Shown: positions 4,039 through 57,957 of the stretch, in pieces
Layout: every line of letters starts with the position of its first letter
Position numbering within the stretch: position 1 is the first letter of the stretch
From: a virus
Taxonomy: Duplodnaviria; Caudoviricetes
Virus record (IMG/VR): IMGVR_UViG_3300033069_001465
Direction: 5' to 3' (one strand)
DNA: 64,000 nt
Made by a program: the position numbers and the translations under genes
The notes under the pieces: model-generated
Databases searched by the model: none
What the model was told of the DNA's origin: nothing
Seen by the model: the letters and a program-made list of their open reading frames with translations, nothing else

Positions 4039-4455
4039 ATGAAATATCTTAAATTATTTGAAAATTTTAGAGAAATAAAAATCGATGAATATAACAAAAT
4101 TGATAAACCAGAAGAACTTAATAAAAGGGAATTAGACCTAGTAAAGAAATTCGCAGATATCAATGAATGGGACCTTTTCTACCTAACAAGAAATTCTGAT
4201 ATTCAATTAGAGTTTTATAAAAGGAATGGTGATTATTTTTATAGAATATCAATAGATAAACAATATGATGAGTATTATTTAGTTTCAGTTGATTTTGAGG
4301 ACTTTGGTAGTCCAAATAAAGATAGCAGCAGATATTTTATATTAGATACATATGAGGAGCTGAATGAATTCTTACTAAAAATTGAAAAATTTTACAAGCA
4401 TAAACGACTGTTTAATACACAATCAATTATACAACCTCCGAAATGGATAATTTAA
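4039..4455 (+). CDS. Hypothetical protein, N-terminal MKYLKLFE tag
   Basis: TAATATATA upstream at 4021; distant member of the DEWF/KCDQ paralog family. Confidence 0.8.
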   Translation: MKYLKLFENFREIKIDEYNKIDKPEELNKRELDLVKKFADINEWDLFYLTRNSDIQLEFYKRNGDYFYRISIDKQYDEYYLVSVDFEDFGSPNKDSSRYFILDTYEELNEFLLKIEKFYKHKRLFNTQSIIQPPKWII

Positions 4456-4772
4456 TCTACAACTACACCAACTTTCTTATAAAATTGTAAATTTTCGGCC
4501 TTATCAACTAATTCTTGGTCAGCTATCGTTTTGTTTCCATACCACCATCCACCAACACCATCATGTCCAAGATAGAACACTTCATCTCCTAATTTAATAT
4601 CTTTTCTTGAAAAAGCATACCTATCTTTTTCTAACTCAAATCCAATTTTATACCCAAGATCCTCACATTCCTTCGAGGTAAATGTTGGAAGAACTATTCT
4701 CTGTGCAGTATGAGATACTTTTTTAATAGTTCTGTCAAAAAATCTTTCGTTAAATTTTTTAATATGTTTCAT
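4452..4772 (-). CDS. Hypothetical protein, N-terminal MKHIKKFNE tag
   Basis: 106-aa ORF. Confidence 0.8.
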   Translation of the reverse strand: MKHIKKFNERFFDRTIKKVSHTAQRIVLPTFTSKECEDLGYKIGFELEKDRYAFSRKDIKLGDEVFYLGHDGVGGWWYGNKTIADQELVDKAENLQFYKKVGVVVD

Positions 4773-4786
4773 TATCTAAATTTTTT

Positions 4787-5227
4787 TTAAAATGGAACTT
4801 CGCCTTCAATATCATTTAATGAAGTAGGTGCCGCCACATCTTCATCATAGAAGAATTTAGCTGTTATTAAAGGTTCACCACTTTTGACTTCCCATAAATC
4901 GAACTCAGATTCGTATTGTATTAGGATATCAGTTTCTAGCTTCTTAAGTAGATTCATAATTTTCATAACACTACCTATTTTTTCTGTTTTATTTAAAACA
5001 AATTGAACATTAATGCTGCCTTCATCATCAGTAAATACATAATAATTCTCAAATCCAGAATTTTTTATCATTTTTCTAAGTGTAGATAGTAAGTTTTCAA
5101 TGATATCATCCTGAGCTATTTCTTCAACTTCCTCAAGTTCAGGAATTTCAGGATAGTCATCTAATGGTTGATCTATATCATCAAACCCTTCTCTTTCGTT
5201 AATTTCAAAGTATTTTTTAAGTTTCAT
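4787..5227 (-). CDS. Acidic hypothetical protein with MKLKKYFE tag and an SSB-like C-terminal tip (DIEGEVPF)
   Basis: ORF 4787..5236; probable start at ATG 5227. Confidence 0.75.
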   Translation of the reverse strand: MKLKKYFEINEREGFDDIDQPLDDYPEIPELEEVEEIAQDDIIENLLSTLRKMIKNSGFENYYVFTDDEGSINVQFVLNKTEKIGSVMKIMNLLKKLETDILIQYESEFDLWEVKSGEPLITAKFFYDEDVAAPTSLNDIEGEVPF

Positions 5228-5228
5228 A

Positions 5229-6839: not shown

Positions 6840-6850
6840 ATAGGTATATA

Positions 6851-7237
6851 TTATTTTTTTTCAATGATTATTTCATCAGCGTTATTATAATCTACTTTAA
6901 CTTGTCCAGCATTCATTCCTTTTGCTTTTTTAACGAATTTTTTCTTACAATAAAGTACTTTAATACTATTATCTTTTGATTTACAATTCTTAGCAGCTAT
7001 TAAAGCCACCTTTTTAATTGTCTCTTGTGTTGGTAGTTTGTCTTTTATTTTCATTACGACGTGACTACCGGGAACACCTTTTGCATGAAACCACATATCA
7101 TTATCATTTGCTACTTCTAATGTAACATAATCATTTGCCTCAGCATCTTTTCCTTGATATATAACAAAATCATCAATTATAATTTTTTTGAAATTAGGAC
7201 CTGATTTTTTTGATTCAAATGTTTTTAAATATTTCAT
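6851..7237 (-). CDS. NFACT-R (RqcH/DUF814-type) RNA-binding domain protein with MKYLKTFE tag
   Basis: GKDAEAND, DMWFHAKGVPGSHVV and VKK.KG...GQV motifs. Confidence 0.85.
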   Translation of the reverse strand: MKYLKTFESKKSGPNFKKIIIDDFVIYQGKDAEANDYVTLEVANDNDMWFHAKGVPGSHVVMKIKDKLPTQETIKKVALIAAKNCKSKDNSIKVLYCKKKFVKKAKGMNAGQVKVDYNNADEIIIEKK

Positions 7238-7662
7238 TATCTTGTATAAATATTTTTAAAAGAAAAATCCTGAGTATCATATAATATGATATTTTCATGA
7301 CCGAAAACTACAATAGTATCTTTAAAAAAGCTACATCCATGAATCTCATACATACTTAGAACGGATAACAAATCTTTATTTTTGAATACTAACACAAGAG
7401 ATAAATTATAATTGGCATATAATCTTATGTTATTATTTGTCGTTTTAAACCACAATGATCCATGCCTAATATCTTTTTTTGGTGATGATAAATCTATCGG
7501 ATCATCCAGCTGTGTCGTATTCAAGCGAAGACATTCTATTTTACTAGATATATCATTAATTTTTTTATTTCCATGTATAAAATCAATAGATGGATCATGA
7601 GTAATCTTGTTCCATGTTAGTACATCTTCCCCAGATTCATTTATTCTTTTTATATGTTTCAT
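7237..7662 (-). CDS. Hypothetical protein, MKHIKRINE tag
   Basis: 141-aa ORF. Confidence 0.75.
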   Translation of the reverse strand: MKHIKRINESGEDVLTWNKITHDPSIDFIHGNKKINDISSKIECLRLNTTQLDDPIDLSSPKKDIRHGSLWFKTTNNNIRLYANYNLSLVLVFKNKDLLSVLSMYEIHGCSFFKDTIVVFGHENIILYDTQDFSFKNIYTR

Positions 7663-9557
7663 ATATATTTTTTTAAATTTTCTAATAATCTATCAGCATT
7701 ATCAAATGGTTTTGATAAATTTTCTAAATCCAAATTAGATGTATAATAATCTTTTCCTTTATTTATATAGAAGGCCTCTATAAGGTCATTAGGGACATTT
7801 ATACCAGAGTATCTACATTGATTTACGATTGGGATTATCGCCTGTTTAGGTGTGAAATTTTCGTCTTTAAATGACTTTGGGAAGTCTTTACCATCATAAT
7901 CATTCGCACCGTCATCACCATGTACATAAAATCCTGCCACTTTTCCCTCTAAATGGTTTTTTAATAAGTCGTTATATTCACCAGATTGTGCAAATTTACC
8001 GGTTATTTCTGAATTTTTCAAATTTCCTTTTCCCAATACTTTAATAGCGTCATCATAGTGTAATGTTTGACTAGCACAAACTAATCTATCAAATAAAGCT
8101 TTTACTTGACTACTAACAGAGTACCAATGTATTGGACTAAATACTAAAAAAGCATCACACTTTTCAAGCTTTGTATATATGTCTCCGTCATACATAAAGT
8201 CTGGCTTTTTTTCATCATTCTTTTTATAACATGTGCAGTACCAATGACAATTATGTACCTCAATACCTTCACATATAAATTTGTGAGAATCACTAACAGA
8301 TATATCATAGACATCCGATGTTTCTATGCTTTCTATGCTTTCAATTTTTCCGAAGGATGTATGCTTTTTAGAATTTCTATATTTAATATATTCAAATTTG
8401 TAGTCTTTGTTAATTATACCGATTTCTCGCATGAATATATTGGCATTTTTACCGCTTATAATCAACATAGAAGACCTTTTAATAAATTTATTAAATCTAA
8501 AAGTTTCTATATGATCTAGATATGATATTGATGATTTTATTCCAAACTTTGATAATAACATTTGACAATCTCTTAGAGAATCTTTACTAACACTTGTTAA
8601 ATTTATCTCATAATATTTATTTCCATTATTATTTCTTAATATAACAGATCCATCAGTAGCAAACCATCCATTTAAAAATTTAGATATTTGTATTTTAGAA
8701 GAATTCATTATTATATCTGGTATTCTTCTACTGTGAATATTTTTAATCTTTTCTGATTTAATTAAAGTGTTTAGCGAGATGTTTATATTTCTATCTTTAA
8801 AAGATATCCAGTTGGTAGTAGTATTTTTTGATATTGGACCTTGTGAAACTGAAATTTCAAAATTAGATGATATAAAATTAAAAAGTTTTTCATCTCTTAT
8901 ATCATAACACAATCTTAATTTTCCACTCTTATATGATCCATCTCCCCATATCATACCAGCAATATGATAAACATTAATGTTATTATCATCGTTAATAAAA
9001 TTTTCATTAAAATTAAATGGAAGTCTATCACCAATTTTGATATCTTTTACATTTTTCCACTTTTCTTCATATCCAATTAATTTTCTCTTATTCCCATTTT
9101 TATATATTGGATTTATTATTTTTATTGGGTGATTGTCGGTAAGTTTTATTTTTCTACCATCCGAAACTATCACTTCAAATACATCAGAGTCTTTTCCTGA
9201 CATCCAAGCATTTTCAACTACTCCAGTAGATAGTTCATCTCCAATTTGAATATCTTCAATTTTCTTAAATCCATACTTTGTTTCTACTCTTTCACCTTTT
9301 GCAATACAATGATATCCACCAGCAGTTGATACACATCCCTTACATGGTTGTATGATTGATTTTTTAGACTGATTTACTGATAAGTCAATCACATCAAAAT
9401 TATAAATGTCAGAATATTTATCAACGACATACTCAACGATTGTATGAGTTTTACTTTCCATATTTGGACAAGTGTCTTTATCCCTTGGAGATCCTTGAAA
9501 GATAATTACCTTAGGCTTACTTTTATTAATATCTTCAAATAGTTTAATATATTTCAT
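7659..9557 (-). CDS. Flavodoxin-like iron-sulfur flavoprotein (FMN-reductase fold) interrupted by an intein
   Basis: GSPR; PCKGCVSTAGGYH|CHWYCTC after splicing; D.F.VFSPIHWY..SSQVKALFDRL; GKVAGF.VHGD. Confidence 0.85.
   Translation of the reverse strand: MKYIKLFEDINKSKPKVIIFQGSPRDKDTCPNMESKTHTIVEYVVDKYSDIYNFDVIDLSVNQSKKSIIQPCKGCVSTAGGYHCIAKGERVETKYGFKKIEDIQIGDELSTGVVENAWMSGKDSDVFEVIVSDGRKIKLTDNHPIKIINPIYKNGNKRKLIGYEEKWKNVKDIKIGDRLPFNFNENFINDDNNINVYHIAGMIWGDGSYKSGKLRLCYDIRDEKLFNFISSNFEISVSQGPISKNTTTNWISFKDRNINISLNTLIKSEKIKNIHSRRIPDIIMNSSKIQISKFLNGWFATDGSVILRNNNGNKYYEINLTSVSKDSLRDCQMLLSKFGIKSSISYLDHIETFRFNKFIKRSSMLIISGKNANIFMREIGIINKDYKFEYIKYRNSKKHTSFGKIESIESIETSDVYDISVSDSHKFICEGIEVHNCHWYCTCYKKNDEKKPDFMYDGDIYTKLEKCDAFLVFSPIHWYSVSSQVKALFDRLVCASQTLHYDDAIKVLGKGNLKNSEITGKFAQSGEYNDLLKNHLEGKVAGFYVHGDDGANDYDGKDFPKSFKDENFTPKQAIIPIVNQCRYSGINVPNDLIEAFYINKGKDYYTSNLDLENLSKPFDNADRLLENLKKYI
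8250..9308 (-). mobile_element. 353-aa intein with LAGLIDADG homing endonuclease
   Basis: Starts CIAKGERV; block B LTDNHP; LAGLIDADG-like IAGMIWGDG and FLNGWFATDG; ends VYDISV...HKFICEGIEVHN followed by Cys+1. Confidence 0.92.
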
Positions 9558-10428
9558 ACATGTCTTTTATAAATTTTATTACACCGTCAAGTTGGTCACA
9601 TTTATACATTTTTTCCTCCCAATTAACAACACTTCCATCATCCATTCCAACACATGCCAAAAACCAATCATCACTACATTTCATTATATCTATAGTTTCT
9701 TTTTCATTATTTGGTTTTATCCTCATAGTAAAATTTTTAACTACTATAACATCATCTTCTGATGTTTCTGATAATTTATGGCTTTTTATACTATCACCAT
9801 CATGTATCCTTATTTCTTCACTCTCAAACCACTTATCTAATCCCCAATTATCTGAGATAAGCCATTCTTTACCACCGGTAATAAGAGAAGCATCTTCAGT
9901 TTCAACCATAAAATCCTTTCCAACAAAATTCTTTAGTGTTAATATTTCACTGTTTGAAAGAAAGTATATATCGGGATTTTGTATAGTATTATCAAATTCG
10001 TCTTGTGTTACTTTATAATAATAGTTATTCTTAACATCTAATGATTCATCAACTTTGTTGGGTAATAGTGTTTTAAGACATTTTATAACACCATTTATTT
10101 GATCGCACTCATAAAAGAATGGATAGTCTGTTACTTGAAACCACTCATCTTTATATTTTTCTACTTTTATATATTTTTTCATAGATGTATCTTTATATGG
10201 AATCCATGTTCCTACACCAATAGGATGCTCATATGATCCTTGTTCTAACTCAAATTTATCAACTCTATATTTTCTTAAAAGTGATTTTATTTGATCAAAT
10301 TCTACATCAGTAAAGATATCTAAGTTAGAAGCAAAAAACTTTTCAACACCTTCACTGGCAGGCCCCCTGGATCCATAAGAAATCTCCCTAAATCCATTAA
10401 ATTTTTCAAATATTTTTAAATATTTCAT
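9544..10428 (-). CDS. Hypothetical protein, MKYLKIFE tag, two DEWF...(Y)xCDQxxG repeats
   Basis: KDEWFQV...YECDQINGVIK and DDWFLA...YKCDQLDGVIK. Confidence 0.8.
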   Translation of the reverse strand: MKYLKIFEKFNGFREISYGSRGPASEGVEKFFASNLDIFTDVEFDQIKSLLRKYRVDKFELEQGSYEHPIGVGTWIPYKDTSMKKYIKVEKYKDEWFQVTDYPFFYECDQINGVIKCLKTLLPNKVDESLDVKNNYYYKVTQDEFDNTIQNPDIYFLSNSEILTLKNFVGKDFMVETEDASLITGGKEWLISDNWGLDKWFESEEIRIHDGDSIKSHKLSETSEDDVIVVKNFTMRIKPNNEKETIDIMKCSDDWFLACVGMDDGSVVNWEEKMYKCDQLDGVIKFIKDMYEIY

Positions 10429-10760
10429 TTATTTATAACTTTATTTAGGTATTGCAATCCATAGAATATATCAACAACTCTTAATTTAATAACACCTTGT
10501 ACGGCAGGTGATGTAAAGCTATGCCCCTGCTTTCTAAGTAAAGCTGTTATCCAAATATAATCACCTCTTTTAACCTCTTTGACTGATAAATCCGTATTTA
10601 TGCCAATAGCACCTTCAGTAACAGGTATATCTTTCGGGTCGGTAAATATATCTAAGATTTCTTCGATTTGATACTCACCTTTAAGTTTTTGTATTTCTGG
10701 CTCTAAGTCTTTATTCTCAATATCTGAGGATAATTCGTCGTACTTTTTGATTTTATTCAT
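10425..10760 (-). CDS. Hypothetical protein
   Basis: 111 aa; late-type motif 4 nt upstream. Confidence 0.8.
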   Translation of the reverse strand: MNKIKKYDELSSDIENKDLEPEIQKLKGEYQIEEILDIFTDPKDIPVTEGAIGINTDLSVKEVKRGDYIWITALLRKQGHSFTSPAVQGVIKLRVVDIFYGLQYLNKVINK

Positions 10761-35488: not shown

Positions 35489-35519
35489 TTTAATATATAT
35501 TAAAATGAAACATCTAAAA
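35474..35519. repeat. 46-bp perfect palindrome spanning two divergent start codons and a shared promoter
   Basis: TTTTAGATGTTTCAT-TTTAATATATATTAAA-ATGAAACATCTAAAA. Confidence 0.9.
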
Positions 35520-35993: not shown

Positions 35994-36310
35994 TCAAAGT
36001 CTTCATCAGTGTAAAAAATATCAACATCACCATAATCGGTATTATTGAAATACCATCCTCCCCAATCTGTATCTTCAACAGATTCAGCATTCAATAGCTT
36101 GAATATTTGTTCTTTTACTTCATCATTGAATTCTATATCTGGTATTAATATATCAATATCGTGTTCGGATGTAACTTTTCCTTTCCCAAATCCACCAATG
36201 AGTGATGCATTTTTTGATATATTTTTTTGTAATAAAGACAATGCTTTATTCGCATCATCTATTGTATGCAACTTTTCAGTAATATACTCCTTAAATAATT
36301 TTATTTTCAT
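35987..36310 (-). CDS. Minimal Pol-beta-type nucleotidyltransferase
   Basis: IGGFGKG...HDIDILI...VDIF: G(G/S), DxD and a third Asp. Confidence 0.75.
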   Translation of the reverse strand: MKIKLFKEYITEKLHTIDDANKALSLLQKNISKNASLIGGFGKGKVTSEHDIDILIPDIEFNDEVKEQIFKLLNAESVEDTDWGGWYFNNTDYGDVDIFYTDEDFDY

Positions 36311-36358: not shown

Positions 36359-38824
36359 TTAGATACTAATATAGAATCTTGAATTTCCTGATGATATACC
36401 TTGAATCATCTTCATTTCCCCTTGATTAAGCACTATGTTTGATTTTATCTTATCAACAAGTTCATCCAATTCTTCTTTCTTTTTGGTGTGGCTTAGATAA
36501 TTAAATATCTCACTGAAATAATCTACATGATTTCTTCCTTGTTGATGAAAATCCTGTCCATCTATTTTTGACCACTTATCAGCTTGATTTCTAGTTCTTT
36601 TAACTAAATTAAAATAGTTTTGGAACCCCCAATTAAAATAGTAATAAATTAGAGAAACCGATTCGTGTTGATATATATCCATATTAGGAATTATTTGATT
36701 ACCATAGTTCTTTCTGACCTTTGTCCTATTTTTGACCAACCAATCACATAGTTTTTCTCTCTCACTATCATCCAATCTAAAATCCTCTCTTAAATAAGGT
36801 GTTTGATTATATGACTCCATGTTAAATAAAATTCTTATTAGGAATTTCATTTGATCTTTACTGAAACTAATTTTTAGACTGTTCATTAAATCAATATTAT
36901 CAGTTTTAACTAAACTGGTAATCATATAGAGAGTTGATGTAAACCCTAGTTCATCATATCTACCAAATGAGAATGACTCATTTTTTAATTTAGGATAGAA
37001 ATAATCAACTATTGTTTGCGCATCTATGTCTCTTTTATTTCTATCAATTTTTACAACCCACTGTTTTATAGTATTTAGTGCATAATTCGTTGTTGTATAT
37101 TGTGGTAATACTTTTTTATAGAGTCTTAATAGTTCCTCCCTTTCACACAATTCTTTTAATTTAGGGTATCCTGATAAATATTCTTCATCGATATCTAAGA
37201 ATACTGAGGAACTTATTTTATTTTCATCTAAAAATTTATTCATTGCTTCTTCTTGACTAGAGGATGGATTGATAACCAAATCAACTATTTTATCAACGTG
37301 TGATTTTATTTGTGGATATTTTTTAGATAACTTCATCCAAACATTTAATGGATTTGAGTTAAAAACATAACCTAAGTCAAATTTTGATTTTTGTATTAAT
37401 TTTATTAAGCCATCCGTATCGACCTCATACCCATTTAATTTCGCAAATTCTAATATTTCATCTATCTTACTAACATTATTATCTCTTAAGTAGCTAACCA
37501 ATTGATCCCATGTAAATATGTGTGGCCCAACTCCATAGTATTTTAAAACATATAATTGTTGATTAAAATTTAGCCCATAGTTAGAAAAGCTTTCTATCGT
37601 CGAATTTTGTAGTCGATCTATTATATCAATAGAATCATAATCAAATATTTTCTTTAGATCTTCATCTTTTGTATCAAACATTTTTATTTCTCTTGGGAAT
37701 GGATTTAAATTAAATAAATAGTTCATATTTATTTTTTCTCTTAGTTTAAATTGTTTTTTTCTACTAATTATCCATTCTAAGCCCTTTCCCTTTATTTGGC
37801 CGAGATAATTTATCTCCATTTTATCTTGCAGCCCATGATTTTCCATTTCATCTGTAGTGAATAGTTTAAAGTCATCTTGTTTAAATACGGATTTATTTTT
37901 TAGAATATCATCTTTTGATATTCCAAATTCAATTAGGTCGCTTACCGGAGTGTTATTAAAATTAATCTCATCAAATTTAATTTTCAATGAGTCTAATTTA
38001 AACCCCCTATCTAATAGTATCGCTGATAACTTATCAGAATAAATTGATCTATCATCAACTAAATGAGCTGTATAAAGCTTATATCCATAGGTTATTCCTA
38101 TTTTTCTATAATTATCATTTAGATCTGTCAAGAAGGCAACAAATTGTCTATTTAACCCATTATTATAAGAATTAAATGTAGATTGATCCAAAATACACCA
38201 ACTTGTATCACCTGCTAATCTTCTTAATTGGAAACTATCAGAAACTTTAATTATAATTATGTCATTCGCCTTGCTTTTATAAATTAAATCAACATTTGTA
38301 TTCTTAACTTCTCTTAAGATAGATTCGTATTTTAAGTTCTTTTGATTTACAAAAGAGTTCAAAGCATTAGACAATTCAGATTGAGTTTTATATCTTGATA
38401 TTTTCTTTATGAATACGTTTTTATCTTTTCTATCATATAATTTCAAAAATAGAGGATACATATTACTATTTACCAAATCTTTCTGTGTAGAAGGTAACTC
38501 TGATATCATTTGTTTAATCTTCCAATTATTTCTAGCGGATATAATATCATCTTGTAACTCTTCCCATTTTGAATAATTCGTAATGGTTTTGTTTAAGTTT
38601 CTAATATAAGGCGCGGATATTATCAAATCATATAACTCTTTAAGTGACTCAAAGCTAACACCTTGTTCTAGCCACATTTTAACAAAGAATCCTAAATATC
38701 CATTATGATCTTTAGTTAACTCCTTTATGTCATTATATGTTTTGCTATTTTCACCCACCCCAAACTTTCGCAAAATTGATCTGGCTAGTTGTGTATTTTC
38801 AAATAATTTAAAATTATCGATCAT
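36359..38824 (-). CDS. Large hypothetical protein (821 aa), MIDNFKLFE tag, GxxxWCI motif
   Basis: LAGDTSWCI...FNSY...; bracketed by the 27-bp direct repeats. Confidence 0.85.
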   Translation of the reverse strand: MIDNFKLFENTQLARSILRKFGVGENSKTYNDIKELTKDHNGYLGFFVKMWLEQGVSFESLKELYDLIISAPYIRNLNKTITNYSKWEELQDDIISARNNWKIKQMISELPSTQKDLVNSNMYPLFLKLYDRKDKNVFIKKISRYKTQSELSNALNSFVNQKNLKYESILREVKNTNVDLIYKSKANDIIIIKVSDSFQLRRLAGDTSWCILDQSTFNSYNNGLNRQFVAFLTDLNDNYRKIGITYGYKLYTAHLVDDRSIYSDKLSAILLDRGFKLDSLKIKFDEINFNNTPVSDLIEFGISKDDILKNKSVFKQDDFKLFTTDEMENHGLQDKMEINYLGQIKGKGLEWIISRKKQFKLREKINMNYLFNLNPFPREIKMFDTKDEDLKKIFDYDSIDIIDRLQNSTIESFSNYGLNFNQQLYVLKYYGVGPHIFTWDQLVSYLRDNNVSKIDEILEFAKLNGYEVDTDGLIKLIQKSKFDLGYVFNSNPLNVWMKLSKKYPQIKSHVDKIVDLVINPSSSQEEAMNKFLDENKISSSVFLDIDEEYLSGYPKLKELCEREELLRLYKKVLPQYTTTNYALNTIKQWVVKIDRNKRDIDAQTIVDYFYPKLKNESFSFGRYDELGFTSTLYMITSLVKTDNIDLMNSLKISFSKDQMKFLIRILFNMESYNQTPYLREDFRLDDSEREKLCDWLVKNRTKVRKNYGNQIIPNMDIYQHESVSLIYYYFNWGFQNYFNLVKRTRNQADKWSKIDGQDFHQQGRNHVDYFSEIFNYLSHTKKKEELDELVDKIKSNIVLNQGEMKMIQGISSGNSRFYISI

Positions 38825-42953: not shown

Positions 42954-43249
42954 TTCACCATAAAAAAGAAGATTATGATGTTCTAATTGATAGAACTACA
43001 AAGTGGGGTTGCCCATTTTCATATAGAAAAGGAACAAGGGCAAAGTATATTTTGCCAACTAGAAAAGAAGCAATTGAAGCGTATCGTGAATGGATTACCA
43101 ATGGTGAAGGCAAATATCTATTAAATGACTTACATGAGCTTAAAGGGAAAACTCTTGGTTGCTGGTGCAAACCTAAGACTTGTCATGGTGATGTATTAGT
43201 TGAGTTGGTGAACAATTTAGATAAACCAAAAGTTGGATTTGATATTTAG
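42929..43249 (+). CDS. DUF4326-like protein
   Basis: YDV.IDR.TKWG.PF...ELKGKTLGCWCKP..CHGDVL. Confidence 0.85.
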   Translation: MDMEKCKVVHHKKEDYDVLIDRTTKWGCPFSYRKGTRAKYILPTRKEAIEAYREWITNGEGKYLLNDLHELKGKTLGCWCKPKTCHGDVLVELVNNLDKPKVGFDI

Positions 43250-43617
43250 ATTATTAGGTCTTCTATTAGCTTAATTAGTCCATCAAATTGGTCACATTTA
43301 TAACTTTGGGAAAACACTTCTTTAGTTTTTTGATTAGTTGCTATAAACCACTCATCTTTGACCTTTTCTACAAACCATTTATCATCATCTTTTATAATTT
43401 CTAAATGCTTAGTTCCTCCCATTACTTTTCTATCAAATTCATAATCTATACAATTATTAAATAATAATTCAATCAATTCACTTTTTTCTTCTGGAGTAAA
43501 TGGTACCCTATTTGTTCCAACTCTTACTCCGGTAGCGCCCATTAATTTTTCATATTCATAATAATCAATTCTTTGATAGTATTGATTTGTAGACTCATAT
43601 GATTTCAAATATCTCAT
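43246..43617 (-). CDS. Hypothetical protein, MRYLKSYE tag, DEWF/KCDQ family
   Basis: KDEWFIA...YKCDQFDGLIK. Confidence 0.8.
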   Translation of the reverse strand: MRYLKSYESTNQYYQRIDYYEYEKLMGATGVRVGTNRVPFTPEEKSELIELLFNNCIDYEFDRKVMGGTKHLEIIKDDDKWFVEKVKDEWFIATNQKTKEVFSQSYKCDQFDGLIKLIEDLII

Positions 43618-44237
43618 TATTTAATAGGACAATTTGTTGCACTATAGATATAATCAAAATTTCTTTTAATTGATACACCCAATGCTTTAGCAGTTGTTTC
43701 AACATCTAAAAAACACTCTTGGTCAGATCCGCCAACCATTATAACTTCTTTATTTCTTAGTCTTAAAAATAAATCATAGAGTTTTTTAGGACAATGATAC
43801 CAGACATGTTTGTTTCCGATATAAACAATGATTGTTCCTTCATTTGTTAAAAAGTAATTTCCTCTTCTTAATAAACCCTTACTTTCTTTATTTTTAACAT
43901 CTTGGTATATATCTGGTGATAGTATCTTTTTATAAAAATCAGCATCTACATTATAATTATATCTTTTTTCTATAATATCCTTTTGGTTATTAAATACATA
44001 TAGATCATTATTATTTGGCTTGTCTGGATTCTTATCATATAAATAATCAGTATCTACATTCTTTCCCTCTACATGGTTATCAAATATTTGATAAACAGTT
44101 TCAAATTTTTTACAATACTCATTTAATTGCTTTAAATAATTATCAGTGAAGAATTTTTTAAATGACTTCTGAACATCAACTATAATTAGTATCGATTCAT
44201 TATTATTGATTTCCTCGTATGTCTTTAAGTATATCAT
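43617..44237 (-). CDS. Isochorismatase/nicotinamidase-like cysteine hydrolase, MIYLKTYE tag
   Basis: Triad-like D (IIVDVQ), K (IEKRY) and C (VGGSDQEC). Confidence 0.7.
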   Translation of the reverse strand: MIYLKTYEEINNNESILIIVDVQKSFKKFFTDNYLKQLNEYCKKFETVYQIFDNHVEGKNVDTDYLYDKNPDKPNNNDLYVFNNQKDIIEKRYNYNVDADFYKKILSPDIYQDVKNKESKGLLRRGNYFLTNEGTIIVYIGNKHVWYHCPKKLYDLFLRLRNKEVIMVGGSDQECFLDVETTAKALGVSIKRNFDYIYSATNCPIK

Positions 44238-44247: not shown

Positions 44248-44679
44248 TTATTTAGGAGAAATAGTTATTATTTGTTTCCATAAAGGGTCCGACACATAAG
44301 CTACCCTATTAGTGCCATTAATTGGAATTTCTCTATAAGTGCTTCCATTTCCTTTTTTAGATATTTGATTATAGTGAATATTATAATTCTTTTTTAATCT
44401 ACTTATTGCAGTTTCAACTTTTTTCTTAACATATAATTGATCCAAGTGATCAAATAAGATAGTAATTTTATATCCTGGAATTCCTTTAAATTTAGAAGAT
44501 TTATTAAATCCTTTAACATTTTTAATGGATTTATTTACTTTGTGACTGACAACTTCTACTTTAATTGGTAATTCATCACCTTTATGATCGTTTAGTTCTA
44601 GAAAATAATCTTCTACTTCCTCTGTGTCATTAAGGTTTTCAAATAGATTAAAGTCTTCAAAAAGATTAAGATATTTCAT
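44248..44679 (-). CDS. Hypothetical protein, MKYLNLFE tag, EDYFLEL.D family
   Basis: Paralog of the N-terminal half of 44707..45516 (EDYFLEL.DH, PG(Y/F)KI.I, IHYNQI). Confidence 0.8.
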   Translation of the reverse strand: MKYLNLFEDFNLFENLNDTEEVEDYFLELNDHKGDELPIKVEVVSHKVNKSIKNVKGFNKSSKFKGIPGYKITILFDHLDQLYVKKKVETAISRLKKNYNIHYNQISKKGNGSTYREIPINGTNRVAYVSDPLWKQIITISPK

Positions 44680-44706: not shown

Positions 44707-45516
44707 TTATTTTGTGGGATCAATAAAAAAGACAAATTCGAATACCTCTGATCGAGATGATTCTGATCCGAGGCTGATTATTTTATAAAAAATAACGACG
44801 TTAGGACAAAGTAATATTAGCCTTTTAAATATTGATCGTAAAAAAGTTTTGGAAATAATAAGCCTGCCATCTAGCCAGTAAGCATCATTATTAGTGAATT
44901 TAATAAGTGCAACAATACAATTAACAATTGATTCACAATTTGATCTCATTATATCTGCATTTGTTATGTTACCATATAACAACTCCTGTTTAAATTTTGA
45001 ACTGTCTCCAATAATATTTTTTGTAAAAATATCAAAAGTGTGTTTATAGTGTCCTGTTATAGTTAGCTCTTTATTATATTCTGCCATATCTAAAAAATCT
45101 TCAATGGTATCTAACTCATTATCTTTTAAGGACTCATTTAATTTTCTATTTGAAATTGTGATTGTATATACGTTGTAAAATGGCCCTTCATATATTTGGT
45201 TGTAGTGTATGTGATAATGCTTTATTAGTCTTTTTAAGGCCTGACCAACTATCGATTTTATATAATCTTCTTCATTGGATGCATATGTGATACGTATTTT
45301 AAATCCAGGTAAATATTTATGATCCCATTTTTCTTTTGTCCATTTTTGCCCACTTGATTTATTAGTGTATTTTTCTTTTTTTTCTCTTTTGTGTACCTGA
45401 TGATTGCATATATCTATATGTATATTATGATCACTTAATTCTAAAAAATAGTCTTCTATTTCTTCAATTTCGGACATACTATCATAATGACTATCAAAAA
45501 GTTTGAGATATCTCAT
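44707..45516 (-). CDS. Hypothetical protein, MRYLKLFD tag, EDYFLEL.D family
   Basis: Paralog of 44248..44679, with a second domain after an internal LNES. Confidence 0.8.
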   Translation of the reverse strand: MRYLKLFDSHYDSMSEIEEIEDYFLELSDHNIHIDICNHQVHKREKKEKYTNKSSGQKWTKEKWDHKYLPGFKIRITYASNEEDYIKSIVGQALKRLIKHYHIHYNQIYEGPFYNVYTITISNRKLNESLKDNELDTIEDFLDMAEYNKELTITGHYKHTFDIFTKNIIGDSSKFKQELLYGNITNADIMRSNCESIVNCIVALIKFTNNDAYWLDGRLIISKTFLRSIFKRLILLCPNVVIFYKIISLGSESSRSEVFEFVFFIDPTK

Positions 45517-45579: not shown

Positions 45580-46176
45580 TTAAAGTGGTAATTCTTCCTC
45601 TTCATCATCATCTTCTACCTCCTCAAATTCACCTTGTGGCTGACCTTGTGGCTGAACCTGTGGCTGACCTTGTGGCTGACCTTGTGGCTGACCTTGTGGC
45701 TGAACCTGTGGCTGACCTTGTGGCTGACCTTGTGGTTGAACCTGTGGCTGACCTTGTGGTTGACCTTGAACTTGAACAGGTGCTTGAGCATCAACTTGAA
45801 CTTGTGGCTGTCCTTGTAAAGGAGCCTGAGCTTGTGCTTGAACAGGTGCTTGTGCCTGAGCTTGAACAGGTGCTTGTGCCTGTCCTTGTGGCTGTCCACC
45901 AAATAAAGCAGATGGATCTATTTTATCGATGTTTAATCCTTGTTGAAGAACGTGTTTTGTAATTTCTTCAGCTAATTGAACATCTGAGTAGAATTGTCTA
46001 GCATTTTTATCTAATGAGTCTTTAACCTTTTTAATATAAGCGTTTAATAAAGATTGAGGAATATCAGCAGTAACATTGACTCTGTATATATCATCAACAA
46101 TCATTACACTTTCCTTAATGATTTCCTGTAGCTTTCTTTTGTTAGAATAAGATTCAAATTTTCTTATGTGTTTCAT
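45580..46176 (-). CDS. MKHIRKFE-tag protein: possible ribbon-helix-helix domain, Q/P/G linker and acidic tip
   Basis: YRVNVTADIPQSLLNAYIKK...; (GQPQ)n; ends DDDEEEELPL. Confidence 0.8.
   Translation of the reverse strand: MKHIRKFESYSNKRKLQEIIKESVMIVDDIYRVNVTADIPQSLLNAYIKKVKDSLDKNARQFYSDVQLAEEITKHVLQQGLNIDKIDPSALFGGQPQGQAQAPVQAQAQAPVQAQAQAPLQGQPQVQVDAQAPVQVQGQPQGQPQVQPQGQPQGQPQVQPQGQPQGQPQGQPQVQPQGQPQGEFEEVEDDDEEEELPL
45631..45895 (-). repeat. 12-bp-based tandem repeats encoding GQPQ/VQPQ and QAQAPV
   Basis: Directly visible. Confidence 0.9.
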
Positions 46177-48220: not shown

Positions 48221-48225
48221 TAATT

Positions 48226-48507: not shown

Positions 48508-50664
48508 TTATAGTTTATAATTTCCACCAAAAAATTCATTACCACTGTTATAAACTCGATTTTGATATTGAGACATCATCCTTCTTTGCCTATTGACGTT
48601 TATAATAGATGAATAATCAGCGGTTTCTTTATATTCAACATCTTTTAATATTGCATTAAAATAGCTAAGTGACTCAGCATCTAAAATAGATGGCGCATAA
48701 TCTTCAACCATTTGTTTATATTCATACTTATTGAATATACTAGAAGTATCAACTAATGTCATTACTGTATCATCATTTCCAATATCTGCGGCATATCTAA
48801 CATTACCAGCTGGTGTAATATGTTTAACAAAGGTTGTTATTTCTCTAACATTATCTTCATTGTTGATAACAAATCTTTTCTTATCCATAGCATCTTGATA
48901 ATCTTTGACCAACATATTTTTATTGTCACCAACTTTTAGTCCTATTTTTTCCTCTTCTGCGTCTGCTTTATGTTTATATCTAAAAAATATAGAAGATCCA
49001 TAGTTATTATTCCCCTCAAAGACATGTGGTAAATGTGCTAAAAATTCATTTCCGTAACTATTTATTTCTAATACAACTTTAAAATTATCGTAATGAAAGT
49101 ATTCAAACGCAATCATATAGAATAGTTCAGCTAGTTGTTTTACTGATACAAGATTTGACCTAAACATTCCTATTTGAACTAAGCAAAAGAAATCACTCAT
49201 TGTACTATAAGTATGCTTTTGCATCTCTATTATTTCTCGTGCCTTAGGAGCAATTTTAAAAATATTAATAACTGAATAGTCCTGACCCAGTCCTTCTGAT
49301 ATATCAACCGTCATTATACCTTTAATCTGCTTTCTTTGAATTGGCATAAACAAATTATCATCATCTACCCATTTTAAATCAGAATAAGAGAATCTTAATT
49401 TTCTATCAAATTCATATATCTCTTCAAATTTATAATTTTTCTTACCAGTTAATAAATGTTCAATAGTACTCTCAGTTAATAACGACCTACTTGAATTAAT
49501 AAATCTCAATCCATATTCTTGATTAAATGCATCCTCACCACCAATATCTTTGATAGCTTCTTCTTTCCATGTTGTTACTTCTGCTAGCATTTGAATTGGT
49601 ATTTGTAATCCTTTTGCATCTATAAACTGAAATGATTTTGCCATAGCATCTGTACAAACCTCATTATTAAAAACAGATATAATGTCTTTTTGTAAATCGG
49701 GATTGAATTTAACATCTATTTTAGTTAGGTCACCAAACTCACTTACAACTTGATTATAGATATCATCTTTTGTTATACCAAGTTCAGCCATTTTAAATTG
49801 ATTCAGTCTATAATACGTTACAAATCTACCAGGTACTTGATACCAATAAACACGCATCGCTCTATAGTTATTCTTCTGTGGATCCCCACCAGGTCTTTCT
49901 GCATCTGTTAATAGCTTATAGAATAGGTTCATACCATTCGGGGTTGATGTAATAATGATCTTAGAGTTTTCAATGGCAGACACCGTTGGAAAAGCTGCGG
50001 TATAGTATGCCTCAATAATATTTGGTGGAATGTGTGCAAATTCGTCCATATATAAGAAGTCAATTGTAAAACCAATCGCTGGTGTCTTTGTTCTAGCAGA
50101 GCTTTTAATTCTACATCCATTATCAAATATAACAGATCTTTGGTTCCAGTTTTTGATTCCTACTTTTAAAAAGAATGGTAGTTGAACATAAATAGATTTT
50201 ATCTTATCAATAATTTCTATTGCTGTATTAGCAATATTCGCAACAATCATGATATTTTTATCATTATTAAATGTAATAAAGTGTAGCATTGTGATTGCGG
50301 CCGATATGGTCTTACCTATCTGTCTTGAACCACAAAGAATACTAAATCTACCACCATAGTATAAATCTAATATATCTCTTTGGTAATCCCTTAGTGTAAT
50401 ATTACCAACACTACCGTCTTCAGTTTTAACTCGACAATATTTTTCGGCAAAATAATGTATATCAACCTTACATCTGATATACTCTTGAAACTCAGCATCT
50501 GTTATCGCAAATGTAATGCCGGCTCTTCTAACACCGACTTCATTTTTAAACCATGGGTTTTGAAACCTTTTGATTACAAATCCATCATTTATTTTATTAG
50601 TTATTTCTTCAACTACTTTACTATTGAAGATAAATTTTTTCTCTTGAACCTCTTTAACTGCCAT
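48508..50664 (-). CDS. gp17: Terminase large subunit (T4 gp17-like)
   Basis: LRDYQ, Walker A SRQIGKT, Walker B YMDEFAH, STPNG, F.QEY, VDISEGLGQDYS and DDTVM. Confidence 0.95.
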   Translation of the reverse strand: MAVKEVQEKKFIFNSKVVEEITNKINDGFVIKRFQNPWFKNEVGVRRAGITFAITDAEFQEYIRCKVDIHYFAEKYCRVKTEDGSVGNITLRDYQRDILDLYYGGRFSILCGSRQIGKTISAAITMLHFITFNNDKNIMIVANIANTAIEIIDKIKSIYVQLPFFLKVGIKNWNQRSVIFDNGCRIKSSARTKTPAIGFTIDFLYMDEFAHIPPNIIEAYYTAAFPTVSAIENSKIIITSTPNGMNLFYKLLTDAERPGGDPQKNNYRAMRVYWYQVPGRFVTYYRLNQFKMAELGITKDDIYNQVVSEFGDLTKIDVKFNPDLQKDIISVFNNEVCTDAMAKSFQFIDAKGLQIPIQMLAEVTTWKEEAIKDIGGEDAFNQEYGLRFINSSRSLLTESTIEHLLTGKKNYKFEEIYEFDRKLRFSYSDLKWVDDDNLFMPIQRKQIKGIMTVDISEGLGQDYSVINIFKIAPKAREIIEMQKHTYSTMSDFFCLVQIGMFRSNLVSVKQLAELFYMIAFEYFHYDNFKVVLEINSYGNEFLAHLPHVFEGNNNYGSSIFFRYKHKADAEEEKIGLKVGDNKNMLVKDYQDAMDKKRFVINNEDNVREITTFVKHITPAGNVRYAADIGNDDTVMTLVDTSSIFNKYEYKQMVEDYAPSILDAESLSYFNAILKDVEYKETADYSSIINVNRQRRMMSQYQNRVYNSGNEFFGGNYKL

Positions 50665-53361: not shown

Positions 53362-53371
53362 GGGTTGTTTT

Positions 53372-53744: not shown

Positions 53745-54197
53745 TTATAAATTAATCTTAAATTGAGGATTCTTAGATTTACCAGAGTTAGTTTTAGTGG
53801 ACCAAAAAGAGATCAGAAAATCGATTGCGGATTCTGTGGTATAGAAATCTTTACTTGCTTTTCCATAGGGTTGTTCTTTTTGACCATCAAATTTTTTATT
53901 TAGCTCAAGGTTTTTTGTATTCTCTATTTCACTATCATAGAAATAAATTGATAATTTAAATATAGGTTTATATCCTTCCCCAGTAACTCTTACTTCAGCA
54001 ATAATTTTATTATCATGTATTATTTGGTAATAAGTTTCAGATACTTTCTTTGTTGAGATTCCCCATTTTTTTAATTTAACACTATTACCATCACCAAATC
54101 CCCCAATCACTTTAAGTTTATTGAATGCTTTACTAACTTTAGATGATAGTCCACCCAATAGGCCCTCGTTAAAAGATTTGTAATTTTTTATATTCAT
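53745..54197 (-). CDS. Hypothetical protein, MNIKNYKSFNE tag
   Basis: Late motif at 54218. Confidence 0.8.
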   Translation of the reverse strand: MNIKNYKSFNEGLLGGLSSKVSKAFNKLKVIGGFGDGNSVKLKKWGISTKKVSETYYQIIHDNKIIAEVRVTGEGYKPIFKLSIYFYDSEIENTKNLELNKKFDGQKEQPYGKASKDFYTTESAIDFLISFWSTKTNSGKSKNPQFKINL

Positions 54198-54295: not shown

Positions 54296-57200
54296 ATGAA
54301 ATATTTAAAATATCATCAAGAATATAGAATGGAGAATCTTAAAACTGACTTTGAATCATCTACAATGATAAGCGAGGCATTTGAGAACGACATAACATGG
54401 GGTGGATCTTTATTAGGAAGGCTTATCAATTCAACATTAAGGAAGATGAAGATTGGATATAACTATACTAAAATAAATAACTTAGTCAAATTATTTAACC
54501 AAGAATTATATTCTTTATTAGAAGACTACTCTTTAAATGATGATGAAAAGAAAAAGCTAAACAACTTATCATATAGAATGTTGTTAGAAGAGATTTATAA
54601 AGAAGTTTCTAGTGAGAAAGATGTTAAAGAGAAATTAAAAATTCTTTTAGGTGATGCTTCAAATATCGGATTAGTAGATAATGTTATTTCACAAGTAGAA
54701 AAAGCTAATTTAGAAAACAAGGAGGTTCTTCTTGAAAAACTAAAGAAATTTAAAAATGATTTATTAGAAATTCAAAAAGGATTAGGAATAGATGGCGAAG
54801 GTGAAGGAGAGGGAGAAGAAAATGCGGATGATGCCAAATCTAATCCAGCAGTTATTTTTTATAACAATTCAAAATTATTATTACAATCAATTTGTAAAAT
54901 ACATAGAGATATTAAGAATAACACAGTTAAATTTGAAAAAGGTGTTAGTGATGAAATAAAAGTTGGTAATGAATATTCCTATACTAATAAAGAAGGAAAA
55001 ACTAATAGAGTTAAAGTTATATCATTAAATAATGTTATTAATATTGGTGATGATAAAGAATATTTAACTAAAGATGATGTTAAAAAGGAACCTATTAAAA
55101 AAGGATTAGTTTCAGTAGCTGTTATGGGATCAGACGGTAAATATACCGCATCTACTGTTGCAGTTGATCCATCTATGCTTAAAAAGACTACTGATAGTAA
55201 AACATCTACTTTTTTTGATGATAAGAAATATCAACAACAAAGAACTAATACATCACAAGAAATTCTAACTAAAATAGAACTAGCAAAGAAAGGACTTTCT
55301 GTATATACTGCCAAAAGAAATAAAGAAAGAGTTAATTTCTATAATAATGAAATTAAAACATACCAAGCAAAATTAGATAGAGTTAAAGGTAAAGAAGCTA
55401 CTAAAGTTCCAGGAAAGGTTTCAACTGAAACAAGACCTGATTATGATGTAACAGCAGATAAAAGAGCTAAAGAAGAAACTAAAAGAATGCATGGTCAGCC
55501 AATGACTACTGAATCTGTTATTAATGAGGAAGTTGATGCAAATCTTAGAGACCAAGAATCTCAAGCTAGATTTTCATGGAATAAAGTGGTTAATGCTTAT
55601 AATAAATCAGGAATTGCTAAATTTGTTCCATATATCGAATCAATAATTGATGTTAATGGTGCTGATAAATTAAAAGAATCTAAGAAAAAAATACTTGAAA
55701 TTGGTAGGCAAGTTGTAATAAACTATGATAATGTTGGTAAACCAATTTCTATGGATGAGCTAATATCTGAAGCTGAGGGAACCTCTGTATCAGATATTGC
55801 TAAGTCTATATCATTATTTGGTAGAGTTTTGTTAGCATTTTCTGAAGATATGGGACTTTTAGGTTCTTATGGCAATTCATATAAATCAGAAGGTGATGCT
55901 GGTGGTGCAGGAAATCATATTAAGTTATTCATCAATTCATTTAATAAAATAAAAGAGGTATACCCATCAATTAAAAAAGAATCAATTGTTAGAGATTATT
56001 CTTCTTTCATATTAATAAAAGAGGAAGCTGACGAAGCTCCTGATAATATTAAGCTTGATGAACCTAAACCTGATGAAGAACAACCAGCAGGACAGCCAGT
56101 AGAACCACAGAATACTGAAGTTCCAGATGAGAGTGATAATAGTGATCGTGTTAAAAAGTCTTGGTTCAAATTCTTTAAAAAAGATGAAGAAAAAGAATGG
56201 AAAGTAACCAAAGAGGATCAACAATTAAGAGATGATATTGAAAAGAAAGAAGGAACTGATATAAAATTATCGAATCCTGATGATGATCATATTATTAAAA
56301 TTGTAAACATTTTTGGAAGAGCATATAAATTATATGCAACTGACTATATTCCATCAGGTCGTCCTAATGGGAAGATATCATTAAAAACAATGAGAGAATA
56401 TGAACACATTGGCCAAGGTGAACCTAAGTGGAGTGCAGAAGGTACTCCTGGTTTTGGACCATGGGCGGCTAAACTTCCATATAATAAATGGCAAGATGGA
56501 ATAACTAAGATATTAGAAGATAAACAATTAAGAAGAATATTAGCTAATGCTAAGTTTGTTTCTGATGCTGAATCTAGCACAAACACTCCAATGAAATCAC
56601 CTGGATCAGGAAAAACATTACTTACATTTATAAATGACTTGTTAAATAATGATAATGGTACTTTTAAGAAGCATAGAGCTATTATATTTAAAAAATATTT
56701 TAATACTGAAGGAAGTGGTGGCGGAACAGCTCAACAAGGCAACTTACCAGATTCGCCTACTTTTGATCCAATTATTTCGAAGGATGATGAGGGTGCAGTA
56801 GACATGCCTTTTTTTAGTGAGCAATTTACTACTGGATTAAAAAACAAAAAAGGAAATATTATAAAGGTTGTATCTAAAGACGATAATGTCTATACTATTT
56901 ATCCTATTACTGCCGGAAGTGATAAAGATCCATATGTTTTATTCAGATATCAAGTGAGTAGTAAGAATAATCCTAAACAATCAATTGCTAGTGATTACGT
57001 CAGAAAGCAAACTGCCAAAACGGAAAATAAAGAGGTCTATAAAACAGATTATATTGAAGATGTGAGAAATAATGGTATTCCTTATTCAAATGATGTTAGG
57101 ATCAACATTGGATTTGCATCTACTAAAGGATTTCTAATTGGTGGTAAATTTCCATTTAAATCAATAAGTGTTGAGGATATTAAGAATAATAATTTTAATG

Positions 57201-57394
57201 GTATTAAAGATTATATCATGGAGATATCTGATATCTATTACCTAATTGTTCCAACACCAGAAAAGAATAAAAAAAGTGGTGATGTAAAGCAAAGAAACAA
57301 ATTAGTTGATGCTAGATTTACAATGACTAGAAATGATGTGGATTTAGATGGTAAGGTTAATAAAATAATAGCAGAATTTAAAAATAAGAAATGA
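54296..57394 (+). CDS. Large (1032 aa) hypothetical, probably internal virion protein, MKYLK start
   Basis: Late motif at 54261; several (I/L)xE sites (ISE, INE, IKE) at apparent domain boundaries. Confidence 0.8.
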   Translation: MKYLKYHQEYRMENLKTDFESSTMISEAFENDITWGGSLLGRLINSTLRKMKIGYNYTKINNLVKLFNQELYSLLEDYSLNDDEKKKLNNLSYRMLLEEIYKEVSSEKDVKEKLKILLGDASNIGLVDNVISQVEKANLENKEVLLEKLKKFKNDLLEIQKGLGIDGEGEGEGEENADDAKSNPAVIFYNNSKLLLQSICKIHRDIKNNTVKFEKGVSDEIKVGNEYSYTNKEGKTNRVKVISLNNVINIGDDKEYLTKDDVKKEPIKKGLVSVAVMGSDGKYTASTVAVDPSMLKKTTDSKTSTFFDDKKYQQQRTNTSQEILTKIELAKKGLSVYTAKRNKERVNFYNNEIKTYQAKLDRVKGKEATKVPGKVSTETRPDYDVTADKRAKEETKRMHGQPMTTESVINEEVDANLRDQESQARFSWNKVVNAYNKSGIAKFVPYIESIIDVNGADKLKESKKKILEIGRQVVINYDNVGKPISMDELISEAEGTSVSDIAKSISLFGRVLLAFSEDMGLLGSYGNSYKSEGDAGGAGNHIKLFINSFNKIKEVYPSIKKESIVRDYSSFILIKEEADEAPDNIKLDEPKPDEEQPAGQPVEPQNTEVPDESDNSDRVKKSWFKFFKKDEEKEWKVTKEDQQLRDDIEKKEGTDIKLSNPDDDHIIKIVNIFGRAYKLYATDYIPSGRPNGKISLKTMREYEHIGQGEPKWSAEGTPGFGPWAAKLPYNKWQDGITKILEDKQLRRILANAKFVSDAESSTNTPMKSPGSGKTLLTFINDLLNNDNGTFKKHRAIIFKKYFNTEGSGGGTAQQGNLPDSPTFDPIISKDDEGAVDMPFFSEQFTTGLKNKKGNIIKVVSKDDNVYTIYPITAGSDKDPYVLFRYQVSSKNNPKQSIASDYVRKQTAKTENKEVYKTDYIEDVRNNGIPYSNDVRINIGFASTKGFLIGGKFPFKSISVEDIKNNNFNGIKDYIMEISDIYYLIVPTPEKNKKSGDVKQRNKLVDARFTMTRNDVDLDGKVNKIIAEFKNKK

Positions 57395-57957
57395 TAAAGA
57401 AGTATAGTGATTTTGTAAGGGAAAAATTTAATGTTTACCAGAATGATCCAACTGAATTAGCATCTGATAAGAGCTATTTTAATGAATCGGAATCTGACAT
57501 TAAGGAATTTTTATCCAAGAAGACAACTATTGATAATATTTATAAGACGTATACAGATGAGAAAGATCTAATAAAAAAATTAGCTGCTCAAAAATTCATT
57601 CCTGTAAATACATTTGATAAAAAGAAAATAAAATTTACTAATCCACTTATTGGATTATATGCTTTATCTGCTGAAAAATCAAGAGAACTAAGATCTCTTG
57701 AAAATGAATTAGGTACTCAAACAGATACTTTGTCTCAAAGACAAAGTGCAATAGGTACAAACCCAGACGCAACTGACTCTCTACAAAATGATGTTGCATA
57801 TACTCAAGGGAAGATATCTGATATTAAATCAAGAATCACCAAATTAAAGAATGAGATAGTAACATTGGAGAGAAATACAAGGGACAAATTAAAACAAATG
57901 AAAGATGGTCTAGCTAATAACAAAAAAAAGTTAGATTATTTTATCAAAACCAAATAA
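57391..57957 (+). CDS. Coiled-coil protein, MIKKYSDFVRE tag
   Basis: 188 aa with a C-terminal coiled coil. Confidence 0.8.
   Translation: MIKKYSDFVREKFNVYQNDPTELASDKSYFNESESDIKEFLSKKTTIDNIYKTYTDEKDLIKKLAAQKFIPVNTFDKKKIKFTNPLIGLYALSAEKSRELRSLENELGTQTDTLSQRQSAIGTNPDATDSLQNDVAYTQGKISDIKSRITKLKNEIVTLERNTRDKLKQMKDGLANNKKKLDYFIKTK

Follow-up and report, generated by a model that had tools for sequence, protein, structure and literature searches.

Why should some two dozen otherwise unrelated proteins, encoded within one stretch of viral DNA, begin with almost the same short peptide? The stretch in question, IMG/VR record IMGVR_UViG_3300033069_001465 (64 kb, 28% guanine-plus-cytosine (GC), called the window here in its full length), comes from an uncultured huge phage, and the peptide, MKYLKxFE with its variants, stands at the start of about a quarter of the window genes (16–24 of 79 open reading frames (ORFs), as delimited by a crude ORF caller). 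Our answer, held with slightly better than even confidence, is that this shared N-terminus is a capsid-targeting propeptide of the kind known from bacteriophage T4, removed by the head protease. The protein cargo that the phage packs is probably larger and more varied than usual.

All 21 N-termini quoted in the original prediction were verified in the window, and three further candidates were found: MKLKKYFEINE at 5227 (−), MNKIKKYDE at 10760 (−) and, doubtfully, MKVYNVYKLFE at 15565 (+). A position matrix set 14 strong N-termini apart from all others, while five tags (31337, 4772, 7662, 33000 and 54296) deviate slightly, whether by an extra residue ahead of the Glu or otherwise, and five to six matches are loose. 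For comparison, we used two genomes, LR745206.1 (634 kb) and a 482-kb genome with the same head genes that is rated complete (G003). The LR745206.1 homologues of two loosely tagged proteins, 57391 (MIKKYSDFVRE) and 5227 (MKLKKYFE), begin MKYLKKYKIFLE and MKINKYKKFLE, respectively, indicating that at least some of the loose forms belong to the same tag family. The tagged genes are listed here, with an arrow marking a predicted cut.

4039..4455 (+): MKYLKLFEN..., 138 residues, no family; promoter-like motif 9 nucleotides (nt) upstream
4452..4772 (−): MKHIKKFNER..., 106 residues, tagged
4787..5227 (−): MKLKKYFEINER..., 146 residues, loosely tagged; the start is ATG 5227, not TTG 5236
6851..7237 (−): MKYLKTFES..., NFACT-R RNA-binding domain from residue 22 (PF05670, 1e-12)
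7237..7662 (−): MKHIKRINES..., 141 residues, tagged; its I-N-E↓S matches the capsid propeptide site
7659..9557 (−): MKYIKLFED..., flavodoxin-like flavin mononucleotide (FMN) reductase with a LAGLIDADG intein (PF03358, PF14890, PF14528)
9544..10428 (−): MKYLKIFEK..., 294 residues, tagged
10425..10760 (−): MNKIKKYDE..., loosely tagged; leads the minus-strand operon 10760–4452
30912..31337 (−): MKYLKKFNES..., 141 residues, two genes upstream of the portal gene
33000..33566 (+): MKYLKRVFEN..., 188 residues, tagged
33576..34013 (+): MNHIQLFEE..., 145 residues, tagged
35045..35488 (−): MKHLKLFES..., DUF7919 from residue 10 (1.4e-28)
35505..35993 (+): MKHLKKFEG..., tagged; the LR745206.1 homologue begins MKHIKRFLE
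35987..36310 (−): MKIKLFKEYITE..., loosely tagged; PF01909 nucleotidyltransferase match below the cut-off (E=0.0034)
36359..38824 (−): MIDNFKLFEN..., 821 residues, loosely tagged; the LR745206.1 homologue (1284 residues) begins MKYISRFHLNEN
43246..43617 (−): MRYLKSYES..., 123 residues, tagged
43617..44237 (−): MIYLKTYEE..., 206 residues; body kept in other tagged phage proteins (loci L008 and L108); the LR745206.1 homologue (60% identity) is tagged as well
44248..44679 (−): MKYLNLFED..., tagged, paralogue of the 45516 gene
44707..45516 (−): MRYLKLFDS..., 269 residues, tagged
45580..46176 (−): MKHIRKFES..., 198 residues; a homologue begins MKHIRTYEN
53745..54197 (−): MNIKNYKSFNEG..., 150 residues, loosely tagged
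54296..57394 (+): MKYLKYHQEY..., 1032 residues, no family
57391..57957 (+): MIKKYSDFVRE..., 188 residues, loosely tagged; weak LR745206.1 homologue MKYLKKYKIFLE (23% identity, E=2.6e-6)

The tag is confined to the extreme N-terminus. A strict pattern, K[YH][LI]Kx[FY](N)E, matched eight times in the ~128,000 six-frame positions of the window, and all eight matches directly follow the start Met of a long ORF. Lack of an excess over shuffled sequence had been set beforehand as a possible refutation; a degenerate, back-translated DNA pattern matched six times, compared to 0.00 in 100 dinucleotide-preserving shuffles. Five codons, CTT, TTA, CTC, CTA and TTG, serve for Leu4, spanning both Leu boxes, and the Lys, Tyr and Glu codons are also synonymously variable, as tag codons are in the 37%-GC relative G003, demonstrating that selection acts on the peptide. 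Residue substitutions within the tag are conservative (Y/H, L/I, K/R, F/Y). The bodies behind the tag had been described as unrelated, and this holds in an all-versus-all BLASTP comparison of bodies stripped of their first 14 residues, in which only 44679 and 45516 emerged as clear paralogues (1e-17), and 10428, 43617 and 33576 have a weak domain in common. Paralogy as the cause of the shared start was rejected, given the unrelated bodies.

The location of the tagged genes 'mostly behind a late-type promoter' was borne out for 13 of the 24, which have AATATATA 4–31 nt upstream, while the remainder are operon-internal. The promoter-like motif, (T)TTAATATATA, also precedes the portal, protease-scaffold and terminase genes, and would presumably drive late expression. 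At one place, the 35488 and 35505 genes diverge from a 16-bp palindrome, TTTAATATATATTAAA (window 35465–35528), and their first five codons are identical (ATG AAA CAT CTA AAA); with this common palindromic start, the promoter region of each gene overlaps the tag of the other.

The tag is a modular addition to the proteins that bear it, in agreement with the proposal that it had been grafted onto them. Recognised domains begin past the tag, at residue 10 for DUF7919, residue 22 for NFACT-R and residue 16 for the FMN reductase, where the first flavodoxin-like strand (KVIIFQGSPR) starts. Eleven of 12 DUF7919 homologues are tagged, and the most distant one (36% identity) lacks the tag and opens directly at the conserved YYEDL of the domain; in those homologues that have Thr at position 6, the tag is longer and ends in I-N-E↓S. 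AlphaFold2 on the DUF7919 alignment (35488) predicted residues 27–120 confidently, with a predicted local distance difference test score (pLDDT) below 50 for residues 1–24.

Most tagged proteins are small orphans, and the recognisable domains are those of NFACT-R, the FMN-reductase-like protein with its intein, and DUF7919. Of the enzymes named in the original prediction, NFACT-R (1e-12) and the FMN-reductase or flavodoxin-like protein with an intein are secure, the nucleotidyltransferase fell below threshold, and the 'cysteine hydrolase' found no support in the Pfam search and only noise in a PDB sequence search. The ESM Atlas gave no function for the 821- and 1032-residue tagged proteins. 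The tag is absent from every window protein of known replication, nucleotide, tail or packaging function: the untagged set includes thymidylate synthase, Fpg glycosylase, the clamp loader and homing endonucleases, along with structural and packaging proteins (gp15-like tail protein, terminase, sheath, portal, capsid protein and protease). In the FMN reductase, the intein with its LAGLIDADG endonuclease domain spans approximately residues 106–436 of the 7659–9557 (−) product, and an intein inside a presumed head-cargo gene is unusual.

A T4-type head machinery is encoded in the same window:

23837..25522 (−): major capsid protein, T4 Gp23 family (PF07068, 96.8 bits, above the curated cut-off)
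25586..27772 (−): gp21-family prohead protease (residues ~1–170) with a scaffold-like C-terminal part, 728 residues (phrog_207, 4.7e-30; PF03420)
26466..26909 (−): 42-nt tandem repeat, 10.6 copies, encoding 14-residue scaffold units YSEYLAENLDKNI, each with L-A-E↓N
28403..30148 (−): portal, T4 Gp20 family (PF07230, Portal_T4, 203.8 bits, above the curated cut-off)
48508..50664 (−): large terminase, untagged
58021..61794 (+): tail sheath, untagged

The major capsid protein shares 70% identity with its counterpart in LR745206.1 (634,780 bp) and 53–69% with those of other uncultured phages of 636–735 kb; further removed are the Lak megaphages and the cultured Bacteroidota jumbo phages Tenacibaculum PTm1 and pT24, Chryseobacterium MA9V, Flavobacterium MaF61 and 'Sphingomonas' PAU. 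The protease-scaffold fusion protein would presumably serve both as the tag-removing enzyme and as the docking partner of the tag. A PDB search with its single sequence gave no match, while a profile of the protease domain built from five related phages matched the T4 gp21 structure (PDB 5JBL, E=1.2e-9). There, the conserved His (of GExDHP) and Ser (of SSRAAG) fall on two positions that are Ala in the deposited 5JBL chain, which we take to be the mutated catalytic residues. The scaffold repeats with L-A-E↓N are also present in LR745206.1 and G003, and a scaffold hidden Markov model (HMM) found no homologue in PAU. No co-variation between scaffold repeat and tag was seen across genomes, and the repeat is not used here as a co-evolution argument. 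The 42-nt repeat also produces a spurious antisense ORF (26380–26751).

Protease, scaffold and capsid protein share a putative cleavage motif with many of the tags. T4 gp21 cleaves after L/I-x-E (PMC9026906); an invariant [LIV]-x-E-S lies directly after the protease domain in all five related proteins, hydrophobic-x-Glu sites are enriched 1.5- to 2-fold in the scaffold-like part, and seven related capsid proteins have a conserved [IL]-x-E-[SN] at residues 43–64, with I-N-E44↓N as the predicted site in the window. The mature PAU capsid protein comprises 520 of 585 residues according to N-terminal sequencing (PMC5646251, Table 1), and cleavage after L-M-E64, which predicts 521, differs from this by a single residue. 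At the first Glu of the tag in four genomes (the window, LR745206.1, G003 and PAU), P3 is mostly L, I or F, and P1' is S, N, A, G, D or E. The motif [LIVFM]xE[SANGDTE] occurs within residues 4–18 in 44% of tagged ORFs in the window, 64% in LR745206.1, 93% in G003 and 93% in PAU, compared to 10–17% of untagged ORFs and 4–12% in a control segment, such that tagged N-termini are enriched 3- to 9-fold over untagged ones.

A system of this kind is known from T4; the scale, the presumed cargo and the host group are new here. The T4 capsid-targeting sequence (CTS), found on IPI, IPII and IPIII and removed by gp21 (PMC9026906, PMC3012670), is, like the window tag, an 8–13-residue peptide at the extreme N-terminus that starts with MK and has hydrophobic or aromatic residues three to four apart; it ends in hydrophobic-x-Glu, an end found in 44% of the window tags. 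In both cases the bearers are otherwise unrelated, fast-evolving small proteins, and a gp21-family protease, Gp23 and Gp20 are present. Four ORFs of the T4 genome begin MKT[YF][QK]EF (MKTYQEFIAE twice, MKTFKEFIKE and MKTFKEF...), and the pattern common to the CTS and our tag is MK, a hydrophobic residue at position 3–4, K5, F or Y at 7–8 and Glu at 8–10. The first ten residues of the T4 sequence suffice for packaging, with residues 4 and 7 acting in targeting and 8 and 10 in processing (PMC9026906). The two systems differ in that T4 has four such ORFs, whereas ~24 occur in the 64-kb window and ~94 in the 634-kb LR745206.1; the T4 tag reads MKTYQEFIAE rather than MKYLKxFE, and P3 is often F, T or K here; the presumed cargo here includes recognisable enzymes and proteins of 800–1000 residues; and the window protease is fused to a scaffold.

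Phage PAU (JQ362498.1) carries a variant tag, MKT[LI]xxL[YF]E[SA](K)LNE[SA], on ~22 ORFs (MKTLSKLYESKLNES), mostly at 100–113 kb (100248–113735; locus L226), where they lie to either side of a stand-alone protease gene (111408–112148) and immediately upstream of the capsid gene. As judged from sequence, this tag stands between those of T4 and the window. PAU, a 'Sphingomonas'/Sphingobacterium phage, belongs to the same clade of Bacteroidota jumbo phages with a Gp23-type capsid; its tag is built alike and likewise ends in L-x-E↓S/A, but the consensus is different, the ORFs number ~22 and the phage is cultured. The original prediction is borne out in part, and the comparison with T4 that it drew has gained ground through the gp21-family protease, the Gp23 capsid, the Gp20 portal, the L/I-x-E-type end and the T4 and PAU tags as sequence links. 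In the literature searched, we found no description of the PAU tag and no paper on this motif or on a CTS-like system in huge phages, the Iyer jumbo-phage survey included.

Short terminal peptides also suffice to route diverse enzymes into the HK97-fold shells of encapsulins; there, the peptide is usually C-terminal, binds the shell and is left uncleaved, and neither DNA nor ejection is involved. The inner-body and ejection proteins of phiKZ, 201phi2-1 and SPN3US comprise dozens of different in-head proteins amounting to tens of MDa (PMC9026906, PMC7411985, PMC5694885), cut after Glu by diverged gp21 relatives (gp175-type proteases); in SPN3US, ejection proteins account for more than 40 MDa (PMC7411985). 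These propeptides differ from our tag in being long and heterogeneous, without a reported common N-terminal tag, in using an S/A/G-x-E motif, and in belonging to another head-gene lineage.

The tag had been taken for an invention of this one phage, which it is not: it is common to a wide set of viral contigs rich in adenine and thymine (AT). A scan of IMG/VR with a narrow DNA pattern gave at least 118 loci, and among the matches listed (134), nearly all lie at ORF starts and precede unrelated bodies, on contigs of 17–38% GC and 4–501 kb. With the crude ORF caller, ~94 of 910 ORFs are tagged in LR745206.1 and 33–43 of 708, in clusters, in G003. The exact pattern is absent in the five cultured Bacteroidota jumbo phages PTm1, pT24, MA9V-1, PAU and MaF61, of which only PAU has its own expanded variant. 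Among the 28 tag-bearing contigs that reach 90 kb, ten yielded the protease, as did three of the five rated at least 84% complete. The densest occurrence seen was in IMGVR_UViG_3300029983_000007 (G006; 330 kb), with 42 exact-pattern matches and with long tandem MKYIK[KT]FE arrays at 248–305 kb (loci L173–L176), whose spacing of ~300–700 bp implies genes of roughly 100–200 residues.

Tagged genes turn over quickly. Homologues in LR745206.1 exist for nine of 22 tagged window genes, compared to 39 of 57 untagged ones, with a median identity of 38% for the tagged and 53% for the untagged. All nine homologues of tagged genes start tag-like, seven clearly and two loosely. By analogy, this turnover is the behaviour of the T-even internal-protein loci, which are hypervariable (PMC3012670).

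Docking, cleavage, packaging and ejection of the tagged proteins can be envisaged as follows. In its first half, M-K-[YH]-[LI]-K-x-[FY], the tag would be a short amphipathic stretch by which a freshly synthesised protein attaches to the core of the prohead while the head is being assembled, this core being built, in our model, from the protease-scaffold fusion protein. The end of the tag, [LIF]-x-E with S, N, A, G or D as the next residue, would be the cleavage site of the gp21-family head protease, which would cut within the prohead, so that the body lies free amid the DNA. The tag-bearers, a large and quickly changing set in which small proteins predominate and enzymes are few, would be expressed together with the head genes and packed in modest numbers of copies; some of them at least would exit with the DNA upon infection. 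One copy of each of the ~94 tagged LR745206.1 proteins amounts to ~2.2 MDa, so head capacity would pose no problem. In its broadest form, the idea is that huge T4-related Bacteroidota phages and many smaller AT-rich relatives use a single N-terminal tag, readable from sequence, to load ~100 rapidly exchanged proteins, enzymes included, and deliver them ready-made to the next host, which we put forward tentatively, as possible rather than probable.

Several observations weigh against the targeting propeptide. Tagged genes make up 20–30% of the window genes and ~10% of a related genome, which is far above any documented cargo set. The likeness to the T4 CTS is one of pattern alone, in a peptide too short for a statistical homology test. 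Only the 44% of window tags counted above have a hydrophobic P3, and several have T, K or S there (TFE↓S, KFE↓G), a departure from the L/I-x-E rule of T4. PTm1, the nearest relative in culture, lacks an expanded tag and shows at most a few CTS-like starts. Finally, no protease was seen in two fairly complete tag-bearing contigs, G005 and G007 (the latter 84% complete). G005 (IMGVR_UViG_3300012582_000004; 348 kb, loci L150–L167) has 13–20 tagged ORFs and accessory genes in common with the window, and its rating of 100% complete is based on its inverted terminal repeats. Read-through six-frame HMM searches found no capsid, portal, protease, sheath or full terminase gene in it, and only a 65-residue capsid-like fragment near 37.5 kb; without any structural gene, G005 is probably a fragment.

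The tag might be a protease-removable prohead propeptide on proteins that are internal structural or scaffolding parts, resembling an inner body, or that are degraded or expelled, rather than injected as cargo. The tagged genes of PAU, grouped around the protease at the position of the T4 core genes 67, 68 and 22, would suit such parts, as would the small orphans without an enzymatic domain that make up most of the set, and PhiKZ-type giant phages do assemble an inner body from many cleaved proteins (PMC9026906). Enzyme bodies such as the intein-bearing FMN reductase, NFACT-R and DUF7919 would nevertheless make poor structural filler, and the high turnover of the set resembles the anti-defence internal proteins of T4 more than conserved structural parts; we consider a structural role unlikely. 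The tag could also address another partner, such as a chaperone or unfoldase, a system for timed degradation or a different assembly site, its likeness to the T4 tag and to the protease motif being coincidental. In favour of such a partner are the brevity of the tag, the frequency of Glu-ending hydrophobic motifs in AT-rich proteomes (the 10–17% of untagged N-termini) and some tag-bearing contigs in which no protease was detected. Yet the tag is enriched beside head genes and behind the promoter-like motif that also precedes the portal, protease and terminase genes; in PAU it is grouped about the protease, and the I-N-E↓S end is kept by compensation in the DUF7919 homologues. No candidate for an alternative receptor was seen, and we judge this explanation quite unlikely.

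A peptide without any function is a further alternative, in which a promoter-plus-start cassette (TTTAATATATA, a short spacer and ATG AAA TAT TTA AAA), acting as a module for recombination or translation initiation, would have left the proteins with a common start as a by-product. T4-type phages do shuffle genes through promoter cassettes, the promoter-like motif lies only 4–10 nt before the ATG in many tagged genes, and the divergent pair 35488/35505 has its common palindromic start region. A cassette would however not be expected to show five Leu codons, synonymous variation at nearly all codons and conservative amino-acid substitutions; ~10 tagged genes lie inside operons and lack the promoter motif, the tag is maintained at 37% GC in G003, and the same motif also stands ahead of untagged genes. 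A translation or promoter by-product as the sole cause was accordingly rejected on the synonymous variation and the operon-internal tags, and the cassette explanation appears to us highly improbable.

The capsid-targeting propeptide, if it works as in T4, would mark the in-head proteins of an uncultured phage from sequence alone. Such proteins, among them many anti-defence and host-takeover factors, ordinarily come to light only through mass spectrometry of virions. Should the loading of ~100 proteins be true as well, the whole 'injected proteome' of uncultured phages could become readable from genome sequence. A cargo of ~10% of the proteome would alter the view of giant-phage genome size, since a good part of the additional coding capacity would then be weaponry packed in advance, and would supply hundreds of candidate counter-defence proteins. 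The tag could furthermore provide a natural protein-packaging handle for Bacteroidota phages, and the idea is directly testable because the cultured phage PAU carries a variant of it.

Among the other genes of the window, homing-endonuclease-like genes crowd 15565–16512, 20050–21036, 22974–23735, 28001–28402 and 41469–42953; these five comprise a DUF723/zinc-ribbon gene, two DUF7487 genes, a GIY-YIG gene with NUMOD3 and a Hef-like HNH gene, and one of the DUF7487 genes sits between the portal and protease genes. An untagged vWA-domain protein is encoded at 14817–15503 (−), and an untagged protein of the S-adenosylmethionine lyase family at 13950–14522 (+), S-adenosylmethionine lyase being a known anti-restriction activity in T3-like phages.

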